Positions 14,063 through 51,451 of a stretch of 64,000 nucleotides of DNA are shown piece by piece; position 1 is the first letter of the stretch; the number at the start of each line of letters is the position of its first letter. A program made the position numbers and the translations under genes. A model generated the notes under the pieces. It searched no databases. It was given only the letters and a program-made list of their open reading frames with translations, and had not been told where the DNA came from. Origin of the DNA: a virus; IMG/VR virus record IMGVR_UViG_3300048851_000105, positions 1 through 64,000 of that record. One strand, 5' to 3'.

Positions 14063-15697
14063 TTGCCACTAGCATTCGACGTCCGAGGCATGCCCGATGA
14101 GCGCAGGGAATCGCTCGCGTGGATGGCTCACGAGTCCAAAGACCGCCAACTGCCACGCCTGAGCGTTTGGAACTACGATCCCTGCCCCGTGCACGAGCGC
14201 GGCTGGTACGACGAACTCGGAGCCCAGCGTTTCAGCCCCAAGCCGGACTGCCGCAACTGCGCCATCATCCCTCGTGCTCACCAGCGCGTGGGAGCCCTGT
14301 GGCTCTACCTCCGCAAGAAGGGCCTCCTCGCGGACACCACGGGTGTCGGCAAGACCACACAGGCGGGCCTGCTCATCGCCATGATGATCGAGTCCGGCGA
14401 ACTCGACTTCGTCCGAGACCTCTCCCGAGGTGCCAAGGGCCGCGTGCTCGTCGTGCCCACCGCTCCCGCGCTCGCACAGTGGGAGGCGGAACTCCACCGC
14501 ATGATGCCGACCCTCAACATCGTGGTGGCGTCCGGCGGGATGTCCGCGGCTCAGCGCCGCCAGATGTACCTCACGCCGTGGCAGGTCCTGATCATGGGCC
14601 CGGAGATGTATCGCAACGATCACGAGAGGCTGAGGAATCTTCCCCTCGCTGCGCTCATCGTCGACGACGTGGACGCGCTCCGCAATCCGGACACCCAGAC
14701 CAGCGTCACGCTCGACAACCTCGGACGCCGGATCGATCGCTACATCATCATGAACGCCACCCCGCTCCAGAAGCGGCTGATGGAACTCCACGCCACCCTC
14801 GATGCGATCGGGGGCGAGCGCGCGCTCGGCGGCCGCGACACCTTCGAGCGGATGTACATCGATCGCCGGAACGGGCAACTCTCCTACCGCAGGCTGGACG
14901 AGGTCAAGCGGAACATGGCGCCTCTCGTGCTCCGGCGCACGGCCAGCGATCTCGACGACGTCGACATGCCGCGCATCCAGCCGCTCAACCACATGCTCGA
15001 TCTCTATCCGAGGCAGCGCGACAAGTACACCGAGTTGCAGCGAGGCGTCATCCGGCTCCTGAAGGAGAACAGGGAGCAGGTCAAGCGCGTCACGGCCGTC
15101 TCGAAACTCCACTACGGAGCCGCCATCTGCGCCGGGCTCGGCTCGCTGGGCGCCGACGACATCGAAGACGGCCCGGGCATGAGTGTGAAGCACGACTGGC
15201 TCATGGACCGGGTGAATGGCGAGTTCGAGGAGGACAAGATCGTCGTCTTCGCTCGGCTGAAGAACACGATTCGAGACCTCCAGTTCCGGCTGCGGGATCA
15301 GCGTGTCGGCTTCACCACCATCTGGGGAGAGGATTCCTCCAAGGAGGGACGACTGGCCGCCCAGAACCGCTTCCGGGACGATCCGAACTGCCGCGTGCTC
15401 ATCGGCACGAGCGCGATCGTGCGAAGCCTCAACCTCCAGGTCTCGCGGCGGCTCGTCAACATCGACATGATCATGAACCAGGCGCAGATGCACCAACTCG
15501 CAGGGCGCATTGCGCGCATCGGCTCGATGCACCGGACGGTCTACGTGCACAACCTGCTCACTGTCGACACCCAGGAGGAGCGCTACCTGCCCATGCTCGA
15601 ACGCGAGAGCGCGCTGGCCGGGCACATGTGGGGCGAGGAGTCCGAGTTGTTCGAGCAACTCAGTCCCATGGCGATGCTCCAACTGATCACAGGCTAG
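14063..15697 (+). CDS. SNF2-family (SF2) helicase
   Basis: LLADTTGVGKT, IVDDVD, IMNATP, FRDDPNCRVLIG, QLAGRIARIG motifs; TTG start chosen from GGAGG SD. Confidence 0.9.
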   Translation: MPLAFDVRGMPDERRESLAWMAHESKDRQLPRLSVWNYDPCPVHERGWYDELGAQRFSPKPDCRNCAIIPRAHQRVGALWLYLRKKGLLADTTGVGKTTQAGLLIAMMIESGELDFVRDLSRGAKGRVLVVPTAPALAQWEAELHRMMPTLNIVVASGGMSAAQRRQMYLTPWQVLIMGPEMYRNDHERLRNLPLAALIVDDVDALRNPDTQTSVTLDNLGRRIDRYIIMNATPLQKRLMELHATLDAIGGERALGGRDTFERMYIDRRNGQLSYRRLDEVKRNMAPLVLRRTASDLDDVDMPRIQPLNHMLDLYPRQRDKYTELQRGVIRLLKENREQVKRVTAVSKLHYGAAICAGLGSLGADDIEDGPGMSVKHDWLMDRVNGEFEEDKIVVFARLKNTIRDLQFRLRDQRVGFTTIWGEDSSKEGRLAAQNRFRDDPNCRVLIGTSAIVRSLNLQVSRRLVNIDMIMNQAQMHQLAGRIARIGSMHRTVYVHNLLTVDTQEERYLPMLERESALAGHMWGEESELFEQLSPMAMLQLITG

Positions 15698-36744: not shown

Positions 36745-37350
36745 ATGACCGTGCAGTTCCAGGCTCCCAAGCCACACGCCCTGTTCTGGATCGACATCGA
36801 GGCCACAGCCCTGTCGAAGAAGAACGACTTCAGCGACGTGCATCCCCTCGAATTGGCCGTCATCGTGACGGACTTCGACCTCGAACCCATGGCGGGCTAC
36901 GAAGCCGTCATCACGCCCACAGCGGAGACAGTGGCCTCCCTGCGCCGGAACCCTCAGGCGCTGGAGATGCACCGCGCCAACGGGCTCGTGGCGGCGCTGA
37001 AGGGCACCACAGAGACCGTGGAGGAGGTCGAGCAGAACCTCATCCAGATGCTGAAGACGAAGACCGCCCTCCAGCCGGGTGAGTTCATGATCGCGGGCTC
37101 CGGCGTCGCCCGCTACGACTACGGTCTCCTCGACAAGTGGATGCCCGCGCTCACCTCGTGGTTCGCCTACTACCCCTTCGACATCGGCGTCATGCGCCGG
37201 ACCGCCAAGATTCTCTCCGGCGGCCGACAGATCGTCGAGCCGAACACGGCGTCGTATGGCGACGAGAAGTTGCACCGTGCTCGTGCCGACGTCGAAGCCC
37301 ACCTGGCCGAAGCGCGCCAGTGGCAGGACTGGTTCCGGAGGGCGTCATGA
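36745..37350 (+). CDS. orn: Oligoribonuclease (DEDDh)
   Basis: LFWIDIEAT, ELAVIVTDFDL, MHRANGL, HRARADV. Confidence 0.85.
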   Translation: MTVQFQAPKPHALFWIDIEATALSKKNDFSDVHPLELAVIVTDFDLEPMAGYEAVITPTAETVASLRRNPQALEMHRANGLVAALKGTTETVEEVEQNLIQMLKTKTALQPGEFMIAGSGVARYDYGLLDKWMPALTSWFAYYPFDIGVMRRTAKILSGGRQIVEPNTASYGDEKLHRARADVEAHLAEARQWQDWFRRAS

Positions 37351-40638: not shown

Positions 40639-40663
40639 CGATCCGACGCGTATCACAGGCATG
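40629..40663 (+). promoter_or_regulatory. Phage-sigma leaderless promoter copy 7 (GCGC-N16-CGTATCACAGGC-ATG)
   Basis: One mismatch in upstream box; ATG starts the SbcC-like gene. Confidence 0.7.
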
Positions 40664-41710
40664 CTGAACGCAATCGAGGTCAGGCACTTCCAGAGCCTCC
40701 ACCATGTCGCGCTGGAACTGGCGCCCTTCACGGTCATCGTGGGGCCCTCCTCCAGCGGCAAGAGCGCGCTCGGGCGTGCCGTGCGCATGCTCACCTCCAA
40801 CGCTCGCGGATCGTCCTTCATCACCCACGGGGAGACCGTGTGCACAGTGTCGGCTACGACCGAGCATGGCCAGGTCACCCTGCGCAAGGGCAAGGAAGAT
40901 TCCTACGTCGTCGTGCCCTCCGATCCCGAGCAGACGCAGCGCACCTTCACCAAGTTGGGTGGCGCCGTGCCGGAGGAGGTCAGCACCTTCCTGGGCATCC
41001 CGCCGAAGGACGCCATCAACTACGCCGGGCAGTTCGACCGGCCGTACCTCCTCGACGACACGGGCAATGAGGTCGCACGCACGCTGGGCGAACTGACCAA
41101 CGTCACGATGGTCTTCGAGGCCGCACGCGAGAGCCGCCGAGCAGGACTCGCGCAGTCCTCCACCCTGAAGACCCGGCGCAGTGACCTCGCGGCCGACGAG
41201 GCGCGCGTCGACGAGTACCGCGGGCTGAAGGGTCAGCGCGAGGCTCTGGACCGAGCCGAGACAGCGATCTCGGAGGCAGGCCGCATCCGTGCACGCATCG
41301 AGCGACTCACACACCTCACGACCTCCCTGGCGTCCGCAGGAGCCGCGCTGAGGGCCATCGAGGACCTGCCCGCCGTACCGGACATCCAACGCGTGCGAGA
41401 GGCGCAGAAGGTCGCACAGCGCCTCGCACGTCTCCGCGACCTCGTGGCTGGGCTGAAGCCTCTCCCGCAGGTGCCAGCCGCTCCGCCGAGCGCGGACGCA
41501 GCCCGAGCGATCGTGGCTCGCATCGATCGCTTCCAGACTCTTCGCGAGCAGATGCTCGCTACCGAGGAGATCGCCAGTGCAGCGGACGACGCCTGGCAGG
41601 CAGCCATGGAGGCTCGTGCTGACGCGGAAGCCGATCGGCTCCGAATCTTGTCTGAGGCGGGCACCTGCCCGACCTGTGGTCAGAACACCAAACACCTGGA
41701 GCACGCATGA
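40661..41710 (+). CDS. sbcC: SbcC/Rad50/gp46-like ATPase
   Basis: FTVIVGPSSSGKSAL, coiled coil, C-terminal CPTCGQ zinc hook. Confidence 0.8.
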   Translation: MLNAIEVRHFQSLHHVALELAPFTVIVGPSSSGKSALGRAVRMLTSNARGSSFITHGETVCTVSATTEHGQVTLRKGKEDSYVVVPSDPEQTQRTFTKLGGAVPEEVSTFLGIPPKDAINYAGQFDRPYLLDDTGNEVARTLGELTNVTMVFEAARESRRAGLAQSSTLKTRRSDLAADEARVDEYRGLKGQREALDRAETAISEAGRIRARIERLTHLTTSLASAGAALRAIEDLPAVPDIQRVREAQKVAQRLARLRDLVAGLKPLPQVPAAPPSADAARAIVARIDRFQTLREQMLATEEIASAADDAWQAAMEARADAEADRLRILSEAGTCPTCGQNTKHLEHA

Positions 41711-47377: not shown

Positions 47378-48633
47378 GACCGATCGAGGTGTACGCCCTG
47401 GCGATCACGATCCTCCTGGGTATCAGCATCATCATGGGCATGCGCGGCGTCATCGGCAGACGATGCAGCGCACGGACCTACTACCGAGCGTGGAGCAAGA
47501 CCCTCAGGTGTGAGAAGTTCCACAAGCACGAGGGACCCCACCGATCCGGTCGATGCGAGTGGTCCGCAGACATCAAGGTAGACGCGCGGCCGCCGTTGGC
47601 AATCGCGCCGGGTGTCCCCGCTCATCTCCTGAAGAACACCGAGCCCGCCGAGCAGCCGATCGATCCGAACAACACGATCACGGCCAGGCTGAAGCGCATC
47701 GAGACAGCGGTCAACGACACGCTCACCCACATCACGAAGGCGGCACCCAGGCTTTTGGACGACGAGCCTGGAGCGCCCAAGAGCATGTCCAAGCGCCTCT
47801 CCCCGGACGAGGTGGCCGAGTGGGCGGTGAAGCGCTGGAACAACAGGCACTCCATTGGCACTCGCGTGCACCTGAAGTCCGAGCCGCCGACGCCGAGGCG
47901 CACACAGTCCAGGGCCTACGTCGATCCCACGGGCAGTGCTCTGGTCCGCGTCTCGAACATCGCCGTGCCGGTCGACATCGACGACCTCATCGTGATCGAG
48001 AAGCGAGAGGAGCCGGAGAAGTTGTCGCAGCAGGAGGACGCCAAGCGCTGGAATGAGAAGTTCCCCATCGGCACCCCCGTGCGGATGGAGTCTGACCCGC
48101 ACACGGTCAGGCGCACGACCACGCTGGCTCACGTCGCTCTGAGCGGACGAGCAGTCGTGCACATCACGGACTACCCCCACGCCGTGATGGTTCGACGACT
48201 GTGGGTCCAGCGTGAGCAGCCGGAGCCCTACCGGCCGTCCCCGTTCGCGGCCAGAGTGCTGAAGGCCAAGCGGGAGGGCACGCCCCCGGCCTATGCGCGT
48301 TTCATGAATCGAACGCCCAATCCCTCACAGGGACAGGCAGGGACTCTGTTCATCCCACCAGGCCTCGTGACCGCGCACGCTCACAACCCAGCCACGGAGG
48401 ACCCGCGCTACTTCGACGGGACCACGCCTCCCGTCGTCAAGCCGTGGTACGACCAGAGCATCGTCCGTGCCAACCACGAGGCAATCAAGAAGATTCTGGC
48501 CGAGGGTCCCCTCCGTCCCGAGATCGACCAGTGCACCAGCACCCTGGGTAAGAACCAGAGGTGCGTCAAGCCAGCAGGCCACTTCGACCACAGGCACAGG
48601 GCAGCAGAGGGATGGGAGTGGACAGAGGTATGA
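47374..48633 (+). CDS. Mosaic protein: TM anchor, two Cys/His micro-motifs and two WN..(H/F).IGT.V repeats
   Basis: WNNRHSIGTRVHL and WNEKFPIGTPVRM repeats; CEKFHKHEGPH and CVKPAGHFDHRH. Confidence 0.7.
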   Translation: MRPIEVYALAITILLGISIIMGMRGVIGRRCSARTYYRAWSKTLRCEKFHKHEGPHRSGRCEWSADIKVDARPPLAIAPGVPAHLLKNTEPAEQPIDPNNTITARLKRIETAVNDTLTHITKAAPRLLDDEPGAPKSMSKRLSPDEVAEWAVKRWNNRHSIGTRVHLKSEPPTPRRTQSRAYVDPTGSALVRVSNIAVPVDIDDLIVIEKREEPEKLSQQEDAKRWNEKFPIGTPVRMESDPHTVRRTTTLAHVALSGRAVVHITDYPHAVMVRRLWVQREQPEPYRPSPFAARVLKAKREGTPPAYARFMNRTPNPSQGQAGTLFIPPGLVTAHAHNPATEDPRYFDGTTPPVVKPWYDQSIVRANHEAIKKILAEGPLRPEIDQCTSTLGKNQRCVKPAGHFDHRHRAAEGWEWTEV

Positions 48634-49739
48634 GCATCAGAACCCTATTAGGGCAACTCTCTCCATTTTCCCATCGTCCCCATTTACCCATGATCACCCC
48701 TGCCGACTCAGTAGCAGCGATTGAGAGGCAGTTCGGCCTACCCCAGCGGCAGCCTCACTCGATTCATGAAATGCAGCCAGCCCTACCCACCCCGGGACCT
48801 CATCCCAGGTGGTTCACCTCCCCGGGTGACTTCTCCGTCATCACTCCCCACAGCACCTATCGCCGCAAGCAGTGGACCACCCACGATGAGTCCACGTGCC
48901 AGGTAGACCACAGCATCCCTCTCCAGCCCACCCATACCGTACGGACGGGAGACTACGGGGTCTCTGTGCCAGCAGCAGAGTTCTCCCCGGGGGCAGAGGG
49001 GATCACGGAGTTCATCGAGATGCTCGCCGAGCGGGACCTCACGGTGGACATGGAGCCCCAGCAGATCGAAGAGAGACTCAGACAGGAGCAGACCCATGGC
49101 GGACCCCACACCCAAGCCGATCGAGGAGATGACCACACGGGAGGTCATCCAGATGATCCGGGACGGGAAGAAGCGACTGGAGGAGAACGGCGCAGCGAAC
49201 CGAGAGCCCTGGGAGCAGCAGCCGGGGGAGGACCTGTCGCTGTATCTGGTGAGGCTCAGGATGAACGCGGGGTACTGGGCCAGTGGGCCGTACAGGATGC
49301 AGCCGGACCGGGAGAGCATGCCCGACGAGGTGGCAGCGATCCTGAGCCCCGGGGTGATCGTGGTGGGGCCCAAGCGTCCCTGAGAGGGCACAACAGCCCC
49401 AGCCACACAGGCGCGTCCCTGAGAGGGCACAACAGCCCCGATCATGATCGAGCGCCCCTCACAGGGCAGAACCGGTCCGAATACAGGCAGCGGCAAGACA
49501 GCACCCCCGCAGAAAAAGTCGAGGCGCATGCCGTCGTCGACATGCAGAAGGTGTGGGACCTGAGCCAGCCCGGCTTCACGAGATTGACCACAGCAGCCCG
49601 GGCGGTGTGCTGGGAGCACCCTCAGACGGATCGGCTCATCGCCCCCTGGCAGGGAGAGCCTCACCTCATCCGCGAGAGCCCGGCCTACGTCCTCGCAGCG
49701 CTGGACGCGATCGAGCACGACTGGGAGAAGCACTCATGA
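48630..49739 (+). CDS. Long ORF with atypical codon usage enclosing a nested gene; extent uncertain
   Basis: Plausible coding at about 48980-49095 and 49540-49739, poor in between. Confidence 0.35.
   Translation: MSIRTLLGQLSPFSHRPHLPMITPADSVAAIERQFGLPQRQPHSIHEMQPALPTPGPHPRWFTSPGDFSVITPHSTYRRKQWTTHDESTCQVDHSIPLQPTHTVRTGDYGVSVPAAEFSPGAEGITEFIEMLAERDLTVDMEPQQIEERLRQEQTHGGPHTQADRGDDHTGGHPDDPGREEATGGERRSEPRALGAAAGGGPVAVSGEAQDERGVLGQWAVQDAAGPGEHARRGGSDPEPRGDRGGAQASLRGHNSPSHTGASLRGHNSPDHDRAPLTGQNRSEYRQRQDSTPAEKVEAHAVVDMQKVWDLSQPGFTRLTTAARAVCWEHPQTDRLIAPWQGEPHLIRESPAYVLAALDAIEHDWEKHS
49096..49383 (+). CDS. Hypothetical protein nested in the +1 frame of the 48630 ORF
   Basis: AGGAG SD, strong GC3 codon usage. 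Confidence 0.65.
   Translation: MADPTPKPIEEMTTREVIQMIRDGKKRLEENGAANREPWEQQPGEDLSLYLVRLRMNAGYWASGPYRMQPDRESMPDEVAAILSPGVIVVGPKRP
49374..49475 (+). repeat. 39-bp period tandem repeat (two identical 27-bp cores plus one degenerate copy)
   Basis: GCGTCCCTGAGAGGGCACAACAGCCCC at 49374 and 49413; degenerate copy at 49452. Confidence 0.85.
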
Positions 49740-50611: not shown

Positions 50612-50926
50612 ATGCAACGAGAGATCAGCCGCATCGACGGCCGTAGACGAATCAAGGTTCCCGACCTGGCGCCGGGCACGCGCGTACGCACAGCAGAGGC
50701 CAATGGCCGCATGGCCGTCGTGCCTGACGAGGCCGGGCCCCTCCGTGCCGACTCCCAGAGCCGCATCACCATCCCCATCGGCAGCAGTGTGGGCATCCCC
50801 GGAGATCACCTCACTGTCGAGCAGCGCCCCAACGGGTTCGTCCTTCAGCGCGCGATCGTGGTCACGTTCCAGGACATCGGCCCGGAACTCTGGGCTACCC
50901 TCACAGGGCAGAGCGAGCAGGAGTGA
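50612..50926 (+). CDS. Tandem AbrB/MraZ-like DNA-binding protein 2
   Basis: RIDGRRRIKVP...MAVVP and RADSQSRITIP...FVLQR. Confidence 0.7.
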   Translation: MQREISRIDGRRRIKVPDLAPGTRVRTAEANGRMAVVPDEAGPLRADSQSRITIPIGSSVGIPGDHLTVEQRPNGFVLQRAIVVTFQDIGPELWATLTGQSEQE

Positions 50927-50929
50927 CCC

Positions 50930-51105
50930 CCTACCCTGTTAGGGTAAACACGTGCACCTCAGGCAGGCGCGCAGGATCGTGACCGGCCTGTCTGAGAACA
51001 GATGCTCACTGCGACAGATAGTGGGGCGGCGTAAGCCCTGAGGTGCACCTCTGTCGTCGGCGCCAATGGTCGATTCTCGAATTCGGCGAGCGCCACGACA
51101 GGCCT
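50930..51105 (-). ncRNA. Structured RNA of about 175 nt downstream of the tRNA-like RNA
   Basis: 12-bp stem 50952-50963/51037-51048 enclosing a branched domain; 7+5 bp stem 51051-51063/51090-51101; terminal hairpin 50932-50946; strand inferred from the promoter. Confidence 0.5.
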
Positions 51106-51118
51106 GGGAGGGGGAGCA

Positions 51119-51222
51119 TGCCGGGCGGTGGGATTTGAACCCACGGAGCGCTACGCGAGCGCTCACCGTATCCCGGCGCGATCGTCCGGGGGCTCACCTT
51201 AGGCCGCTCAGACACGCCCGGC
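51119..51222 (-). tRNA. Class II (Ser/Leu-type) tRNA-like RNA with non-canonical anticodon arm
   Basis: Acceptor GCCGGGCG/CGCCCGGC, D loop GAGCGGCCTAA, 7-bp variable stem, T arm GTGGG-TTCAAAT-CCCAC; about 29-nt anticodon region; no CCA. Confidence 0.7.
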
Positions 51223-51346
51223 ATGCGACCCCGAGTGTAGCAGGGGGGGGGGAGGGTTCCCCGCGCAGGGTGGGCCTGTCAGACCCCTCATCGCTGGTTC
51301 ACCGTCCGGACTCGGGGCCGGAATCCCTGCTAGGACCTCCTCTCTA

Positions 51347-51378
51347 CGTTACTATTGTAACACGTCACTGGTGTAACA
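51347..51378 (-). promoter_or_regulatory. Leftward extended -10 promoter (TGtTACAAT) under two tandem operators
   Basis: CGTTAC-TATT-GTAACA and CGTCAC-TGGT-GTAACA; the only leftward promoter seen. Confidence 0.7.
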
Positions 51379-51395
51379 CCTAATCCTGAGCAGAG

Positions 51396-51431
51396 TAGAG
51401 GTTTCCTCTGTAACCTGTTACAGTAGACACG
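51396..51431 (+). promoter_or_regulatory. Rightward early-type promoter/operator cassette
   Basis: TAGAGG-N17-TACAGT; near-identical to 53796-53831. Confidence 0.75.
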
Positions 51432-51451
51432 TACCGAGGAAAGGACACCCC

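Follow-up and report, generated by a model that had tools for sequence, protein, structure and literature searches.

A serine-tRNA-like element with a replaced anticodon arm in a soil actinobacteriophage, a possible non-decoding mimic of the tRNA body

Several RNAs retain parts of the tRNA fold without serving as decoders. YrlA and the other bacterial and phage Y RNAs, mascRNA and the t-elements of plant mitochondria all keep the tRNA elbow and are targets of tRNA-binding or tRNA-processing proteins; mascRNA and the t-elements are excised from longer transcripts and are eukaryotic or organellar. Transfer-messenger RNA (tmRNA) combines a tRNA-like domain with the reading frame of a tag peptide and with pseudoknots. 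The selenocysteine tRNA (tRNA-Sec) has a UCA anticodon, an 8/5 branch and a 6-bp D stem with a 4-nt loop. Allo-tRNAs are defined by a 12-bp acceptor branch built as 8/4 or 9/3 together with a normal anticodon loop (PMC7609411). In phages, the closest design that we inspected is bacteriophage T4 rnaC (species 1 stable RNA, 139 nt), a phage-encoded small RNA whose function is not known and which is an example, from a phage, of a tRNA-like RNA that is stable and does not decode. Here we describe an element at positions 51117-51225, on the minus strand, of a 64,000-nt stretch of viral DNA (the window; IMG/VR record IMGVR_UViG_3300048851_000105) which, judged by its sequence, is built on the scaffold of a serine tRNA and carries a longer hairpin module where the anticodon arm should be. 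The window represents the first 64 kb of a complete virus record of 125,778 bp with direct terminal repeats (65% G+C), assembled from a soil metagenome.

The element is closed by an outer helix (5′ strand 51215-51225, 3′ strand 51117-51127; pair probabilities 0.94–1.0), the core of which is a perfect 11-bp pairing of CAUGCCGGGCG with CGCCCGGCAUG. An earlier note on this DNA, made from the letters alone, had given the helix these 11 bp; it is indeed perfect, but the adjoining G-C pair brings it to 12 bp, and as part of an 18-nt inverted repeat with 89% complementarity it is prolonged to GGGG/CCCC. The acceptor proper is either CCGGGCG in a 7-bp register, with C as the discriminator, or GCCGGGCG in an 8-bp register, with A as the discriminator, and no CCA is encoded. 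The U8-G9 linker and the D arm follow (51197-51214; UCU / GAGCGGCCUA / AGG, with A14, G15, G18, G19 and A21 present). The D loop, GAGCGGCCUAA, is as the note had listed it; the D stem, there called weak, forms three pairs (U.G, C-G and U-A) once the register is shifted by one base. A module of ~31 nt, rather than the ~29 nt first counted, stands in place of the 17-nt anticodon arm (51165-51196) and consists of GCC/GGU, an AUAC bulge and CCCGG/CCGGG with the 9-nt loop ACGAUCGCG. Next comes a long variable arm (51146-51164; pair probabilities 0.72–1.0) with a perfect 7-bp stem, GAGCGCU/AGCGCUC, and a 5-nt loop, which a single C (51145) separates from the T stem, the Ser-type orientation. The T arm GUGGG-UUCAAAU-CCCAC (51128-51144; pair probabilities 0.98–0.99) is the sole perfect T arm of the genome. 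Apart from these corrections of length and register, the features described in the earlier note, from the outer helix to the replaced arm and the absent CCA, were all found in the minus-strand sequence.

All 24 base pairs of the three core helices are perfect, and the bases needed for tertiary contacts are present (U8, A14, G15/C48, G18-G19, U54-A58 and G53-C61). Compared with the general tRNA family RF00005, the element shows a perfect acceptor of at least 7 bp directly abutting a 5-bp T stem with a UUCRANY-type loop, as well as the D-loop features U8, A14, G18-G19, A21 and the Levitt pair G15/C48.

The body matches tRNA-Ser(CGA) genes of Actinobacteria, among them those of Rhodococcus, Nocardioidaceae, Aeromicrobium, Cellulomonadaceae and others. 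Both have the same D loop, and 21 of 23 positions agree in the D-loop block (GCG-UG-UC.-GAGCGGCCUAAGG.G) and 23 of 24 in the block spanning the T arm and its flanks; U8-G9, the long variable arm followed by a single C and the 12-bp stack of acceptor and T stem are shared as well. Class II tRNA-Ser is marked by a long variable arm that a single nucleotide separates from the T stem (PMC11541572), and the element shares this arrangement. Four differences set it apart from tRNA-Ser. The 17-nt anticodon arm has been exchanged for the hairpin module; the closing helix runs 4–5 bp past position 1/72; the variable stem has 7 bp instead of 6 and an unrelated sequence, at the same 1-nt distance from the T stem; and three pairs at the outer end of the acceptor have other bases on either strand, GGU/ACC in the nearest tRNA-Ser found and CCG/CGG in the element. 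Because the latter change affects both strands, it is the pairing, not the sequence, that the element and tRNA-Ser have in common here.

Chance was assessed in dinucleotide-shuffled sequences. A perfect T arm (5 bp, TTCRANY, 5 bp) occurs once in the genome, compared with 0.3 expected per shuffle, and only 1 of 200 shuffles produced a T arm placed directly against a perfect 7-bp acceptor. When the anticodon arm of tRNA-Ser(CGA) was grafted into the element in silico, ARAGORN in its default mode called a tRNA-Ser(cga), which it drew with a three-pair D stem and the register shifted by one base. Taken together, the shuffle test, the matching blocks and the call for the graft therefore identify the element, at the level of sequence, as a serine-tRNA scaffold rather than a chance fold.

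The same element fails as a decoder. No register of the replaced arm yields a 5-bp stem and a 7-nt loop with U33 and a purine at position 37; the 5-bp stem that is found carries either a loop of 9 nt or a sealed tetraloop, and 4–5 nucleotides are in excess on either side. When the tRNA core is imposed on the fold (−52.4 kcal/mol), the module folds into GCC/GGU, the 4-nt AUAC bulge, CCCGG/CCGGG, a bulged A and CG/CG with an AUCG cap, which suggests that the replaced arm is probably a sealed hairpin of about twice the normal length. Scoring with tRNA finders and models gave no canonical assignment: ARAGORN in default mode reported no tRNA or tmRNA and Rfam at normal thresholds no family, RF00005 included, in the window or in the whole genome, while the tRNA-Sec model RF01852 reached 21.4 bits (gathering threshold, 47) through a local alignment that used the internal GCCGGG as the 5′ strand and skipped the D and anticodon arms. 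The note's proposal of a tRNA mimic instead of a decoder thus gains from the Ser-type body, the missing decoding loop and the failure of the tRNA models, although as a whole it is only partly supported.

Other assignments of the locus were discarded. ARAGORN in its intron mode (-i) gave a single match, a tRNA-Ala(cgc) at the element, drawn with an 8-bp acceptor and a 4-nt "intron"; it does not count as evidence, given that such matches turn up 0.73 times per shuffled genome. An archaeal-type intron is incompatible with a bacterial host and no bulge-helix-bulge motif was found. A coding open reading frame (ORF) across the element was rejected on its G+C content at second codon positions (0.66 vs a genome mean of 0.46), and a tmRNA because ARAGORN -m reported none at its default threshold and Rfam gave no match. 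The kissing-loop dimer that had been suggested from the loop palindrome CGAUCG is weakened and the palindrome is not taken as significant, as CGATCG is over-represented throughout the genome (~197 occurrences vs ~42 expected from base composition, ~4.6-fold) and the loop can close into a tetraloop; the count of GCATGC is about as expected.

The likeness to T4 rnaC concerns the design and not the sequence, for which homology was neither sought nor seen. In rnaC, too, a canonical T arm (CCGGG-UUCGAAU-CCCGG) lies beside a helix closing the 5′ and 3′ ends, a long extra arm is present and an enlarged central domain replaces the normal anticodon arm. However, the closing helix of rnaC is imperfect whereas that of the element is perfect, and rnaC ends the T4 tRNA cluster on the same strand, whereas the element stands alone, antisense to its neighbours and behind a predicted promoter of its own. 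With tRNA-Sec and the allo-tRNAs (8/4 and 9/3; PMC5389517, PMC7609411) the element shares the long variable arm, a possible 8-bp acceptor, a Ser-type body and the origin from soil. In contrast to tRNA-Sec, it has no UCA and a Ser-type D arm; the 8/5 reading raised in the note is one of the possible registers. Allo-tRNAs have a T stem of 4 or 3 bp and a normal anticodon loop, whereas the element has a 5-bp T stem and no anticodon loop. In YrlA, the ends meet in the Ro-binding stem, where a tRNA has its anticodon arm, and an rsr (TROVE) gene accompanies it; the element ends at the acceptor helix, the genome holds no TROVE gene and Rfam gave no match, and a Y RNA was rejected for these reasons. 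Hence tRNA-Sec, allo-tRNAs, tmRNA and YrlA each fail at least one of the defining features tested.

Codon-position G+C assigns essentially all genes around the element to the plus strand, the strand opposite to it, and the 525-bp gap in which it lies (50927-51451) contains no credible ORF. Upstream of the element, a putative leftward promoter region (51347-51432, minus strand) features a TACAAT −10 box at 51354-51359, preceded by TGT and overlapped by two or three palindromic operator sites of the GTTAC type (inverted repeats I1, I3 and I5). A scan with consensus promoters found no two-hexamer promoter here; the TACAAT box is an extended −10 element read by eye. It is followed on the same strand by a non-coding leader of ~120 nt (51226-51346), which starts with GAGAGGAGG, contains the C-rich tract CCCUCCCCCCCCCCUG and inverted repeat I6, and has no ORF with a coding signature. 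Beyond the element lies a structured non-coding trailer of ~170 nt (50947-51116, minus strand), which begins with the C-rich CUCCCCCUCCC, has no match in Rfam and can form a perfect 12-bp long-range helix (GUGCACCUCAGG and its complement; 50952-50963 and 51037-51048, inverted repeat I4). The hairpin UACCCU-AAC-AGGGUA (50932-50946), just past the stop codon of the rightward gene 50612-50926, lacks a U run and was not called by the terminator scan; it may be the shared end of two convergent transcripts. The element is thus found midway in a stretch of ~400 nt which, from this arrangement, is apparently a dedicated and regulated leftward non-coding unit.

Contigs of a leaf-litter metagenome represent a relative that is ~98% identical to the window between 51268 and 51436 (3 differences and one gap), in contrast to 88–95% in the flanks. 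The contig here ends at 51268, that is 43 nt short of the element, and is silent on the element itself. No contig of the leaf-litter run covers the element and no RNA run was listed for this DNA, and neither finding bears on its presence or expression. At 51390-51436 a contig of the leaf-litter relative goes back 47 bases; this phage probably has a further duplicate of the operator region.

No homologue of the element was found. None emerged when the region was compared with 50,697 phage records by megablast and blastn, or from three exact or degenerate patterns run on IMG/VR. A D-loop/T-loop pattern with a long gap, run on metagenome contigs, returned among the matches listed only intron-bearing archaeal and fungal tRNA-Ser/Leu, and a D-loop plus T-arm pattern run on 185,579 species genomes returned ordinary tRNA-Ser and one archaeal intron tRNA. 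Only ordinary tRNAs were detected in 15 related phage records and Microbacterium phage Magritte, both when the element and its whole island were used in BLAST and with a single-sequence covariance model. Descent from the relatives' own tRNA-Ser genes was rejected for lack of similarity. Searches via the neighbouring proteins likewise yielded no homologue of the element; for a 56-aa neighbour, one remote relative is located on a 1,583-nt Logan contig.

What, then, could such an RNA do? The reading that we favour, tentatively and with a probability of roughly one third, is that the element represents a non-decoding mimic of the tRNA-Ser body that engages host tRNA-binding proteins. The class II scaffold derives from an actinobacterial-type tRNA-Ser, with the acceptor helix, the D-loop/T-loop elbow and the Ser-oriented variable arm retained, and the anticodon arm has been exchanged for a longer, probably sealed hairpin, so that codons cannot be read. 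We infer that it is transcribed leftward early in infection from a host-type promoter under operator control, within the ~400-nt non-coding RNA, and the intact tRNA body may then be recognised by RNase P, the 3′-trimming enzymes and the CCA-adding enzyme of the host. It would act by shape alone, occupying or diverting a host protein that reads the tRNA-Ser body and its variable arm and not the anticodon. Candidate targets are tRNA-directed defence toxins, either a nucleotidyltransferase of the MenT/AbiEii type or an anticodon nuclease, or seryl-tRNA synthetase (SerRS), which is able to recognise tRNA-Ser without touching the anticodon. The mycobacterial toxin MenT3 prefers tRNA-Ser over tRNA-Leu by virtue of the variable arm and the one-nucleotide spacing to the T arm (PMC11541572). 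VapC anticodon nucleases of Actinobacteria cleave serine tRNAs within the anticodon, and a role for phage tRNAs in countering tRNA-directed defences has been argued (PMC10264068). A mimic of the body is favoured because the features retained in the element are those which such proteins read on tRNA-Ser without contacting the anticodon. Furthermore, it is the sole tRNA-like sequence in a complete 125.8-kb phage genome, it is antisense and it lies behind a TACAAT box set among operators, and promoter and leader are ~98% conserved in the leaf-litter relative, more than their flanks.

A number of findings weigh against this assignment. The identity set of SerRS includes G1-C72, G2-C71 and the discriminator G73, and all 66 distinct tRNA-Ser sequences that we retrieved from species genomes start with G1-G2. 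The element lacks this acceptor identity, having C1-G72, C2-G71 and C73 in the 7-bp register and G1, C2 and A73 in the 8-bp register. Its closing helix continues 4–5 bp (loosely 9) past a normal acceptor, which could hinder RNase P and 3′ processing. The unconstrained fold prefers the pairing GUCUG/CGGAC (p ~0.91) over CCCGG/CCGGG (p ~0.08); this non-cloverleaf structure (−58.7 kcal/mol) buries G18-G19, while the outer helix, the variable stem and the T arm form at p >0.9 in either fold. Since thermodynamic models often mis-fold real tRNAs, we regard the competing fold as a caveat and not as a refutation. The element is, moreover, a singleton in IMG/VR, the cultured phages, the 185,579 species genomes, the metagenome matches listed and the 16 related phages; covariation therefore lends no support, and selection on the element is not provable. 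A six-frame search of the whole genome found no CCA-adding enzyme, RtcB, PTH2 or Ro/TROVE protein, and none of the 39 ORFs scanned against Pfam or PHROGs encodes a tRNA-related protein. The element is real as a structure-bearing sequence and unproven as an RNA.

In a narrower and distinctly doubtful version of the body mimic, the element would be an early, repressor-controlled dummy of tRNA-Ser that, by its Ser-oriented variable arm and intact acceptor, baits an abortive-infection enzyme disabling serine tRNAs, in a lytic actinophage without decoding tRNAs. The enzyme could be a 3′-end nucleotidyltransferase of the MenT/AbiEii type or a VapC-type anticodon nuclease, and the sealed arm would bar both the use in translation and cleavage at the anticodon. 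tRNA genes of phages are increasingly read as countermeasures to tRNA-directed defences of the host. If the element acts in this way, it would be an anti-defence RNA decoy of a kind not yet described, would extend the countermeasure idea from replacement tRNAs to pure decoys and would provide a simple reagent for finding host proteins that read the class II tRNA shape. The case rests on one sequence, and its value lies in a concrete, cheaply testable candidate, not in an established system.

The embedding of the element in a longer non-coding unit suggests another possibility, only a little less likely than a mimic of the tRNA body: the fold could serve as a processing or stability module akin to the t-elements or mascRNA, that is, as a signal for RNase P and the 3′ endonuclease or as a protective cap, and the flanking leader and trailer, the former C-rich and the latter structured over 170 nt, would be the working small RNAs that it releases or stabilises. 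An element midway in ~400 nt with structured RNA to either side, C-rich tracts resembling anti-Shine-Dalgarno sequences directly next to it and the conservation of precisely the promoter and leader in the leaf-litter relative are all in line with this, and tRNA-like end-formation signals are described for plant mitochondria (PMC1920247) and for MALAT1/mascRNA. Such a signal, however, needs only an acceptor, a T arm and an elbow, so that the embedding is explained but the Ser-oriented 7-bp variable arm and the elaborate module are not; RNase P would presumably be impeded by the extended closing helix, and the flanking RNAs are hypothetical as separate species. Somewhat less probable is a relic, in which a captured or inherited tRNA-Ser gene lost its anticodon arm through an insertion or duplication and no longer has a function. 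In the related phages, tRNA genes come and go (0–44 per genome), the short direct repeats inside the element (GCCGGG and GGUGAGC, each present twice) hint at duplication or slippage as the source of the extra 14 nt, selection on a singleton is not demonstrable, and the predicted stability favours the alternative fold over the cloverleaf. Yet decay should strike stems and loops alike, and here none of the 24 core pairs is broken, the elbow has the nucleotides of functional tRNA-Ser and the changes in the acceptor are compensated on the opposite strand. The element is also located away from the array positions of G012 and G002, on the strand opposite to the arrays and to all its neighbours, and behind a predicted promoter covered by operators. 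In this respect the earlier note, which had argued from the perfect stems and the intact elbow against simple decay, holds up.

Two further explanations carry less weight. An irregular working tRNA, either a decoder with an anticodon loop expanded to 9 or 11 nt or an aminoacyl donor for a non-ribosomal reaction, is improbable. It would agree with the tRNA-Ala(cgc) of ARAGORN -i (8-bp acceptor, 11-nt loop drawn with a 4-nt "intron"), with the irregular tRNAs of the relatives (an 8/4 tRNA-Tyr and an 8-nt loop in G004, suppressor anticodons in G002 and G012; see below) and with the irregular Ser-type allo-tRNAs of soil bacteria (PMC7609411). Against it stand the frequency of such ARAGORN matches in shuffled genomes, the lack of a loop with U33 and purine 37 in any register together with the extra nucleotides on both sides of the stem, scores far below threshold for RF00005 and RF01852, the missing acceptor and discriminator identity for SerRS, and the absence of a synthetase-like or transferase partner among the proteins scanned. 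A 24-nt block that takes in the T arm and the first part of the 3′ acceptor strand, identical to tRNA-Ser(CGA) at 23 positions, could alternatively mark the remnant of an integration site (attP) containing part of a host tRNA-Ser gene. But a six-frame search of the complete genome revealed no tyrosine or serine integrase, and the identity ends before the last four acceptor bases, so that integration would not rebuild the tRNA; these two findings dispose of the attP reading, to which we assign next to no weight. An attP core would also have no need for both acceptor strands and a whole tRNA body.

The surroundings of the element differ from those of tRNA genes in related phages. A search with DNA polymerase I identified 15 IMG/VR records at 45–55% identity and, as the nearest cultured phage, Microbacterium phage Magritte (48%), and on these sequence matches the phage is therefore placed among the actinobacteriophages. 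ARAGORN in default mode found no canonical tRNA gene in the whole 125.8-kb genome, and the related genomes hold 0, 1, 2, 18, 24, 26, 28 or 44 canonical tRNAs. The count thus spans 0–44 in G001–G013 and Magritte despite a DNA polymerase that is ~50% identical. In G012, the tRNA array is located between homologues of the window genes 36745-37350 and 40661-41710, and in G002 elsewhere; the element occupies the array position of neither and is on the strand opposite to the arrays. The window from 45 to 64 kb, and onward to ~86 kb of the genome, has no counterpart in G002 or G012. None of these relatives shares the region of the element.

Unusual tRNAs were observed in several of the relatives. G004, which is almost devoid of tRNAs, has three adjacent odd ones at 15343-15656 of its record: one with an 8-nt anticodon loop (ACAA), a tRNA-Tyr(GUA) drawn by ARAGORN in an 8/4 form (8-bp acceptor, 4-bp T stem), as in allo-tRNAs, and a tRNA-Leu(CAA). 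The arrays of G002 and G012 each include a tRNA of the suppressor type, an 84-nt class II tRNA with a CUA anticodon (70393-70476) in the former and a 69-nt tRNA with a UCA anticodon (73861-73929) in the latter. Elsewhere in the window, a 392-codon ORF at 48561-49739 has no coding signature, matches nothing in Pfam or PHROGs and found no homologue, not even itself, in the protein collection searched. The leaf-litter relative aligns to it with 46 gaps. This segment, which may be non-coding or hold smaller genes, also carries the highest AT skew of the window.

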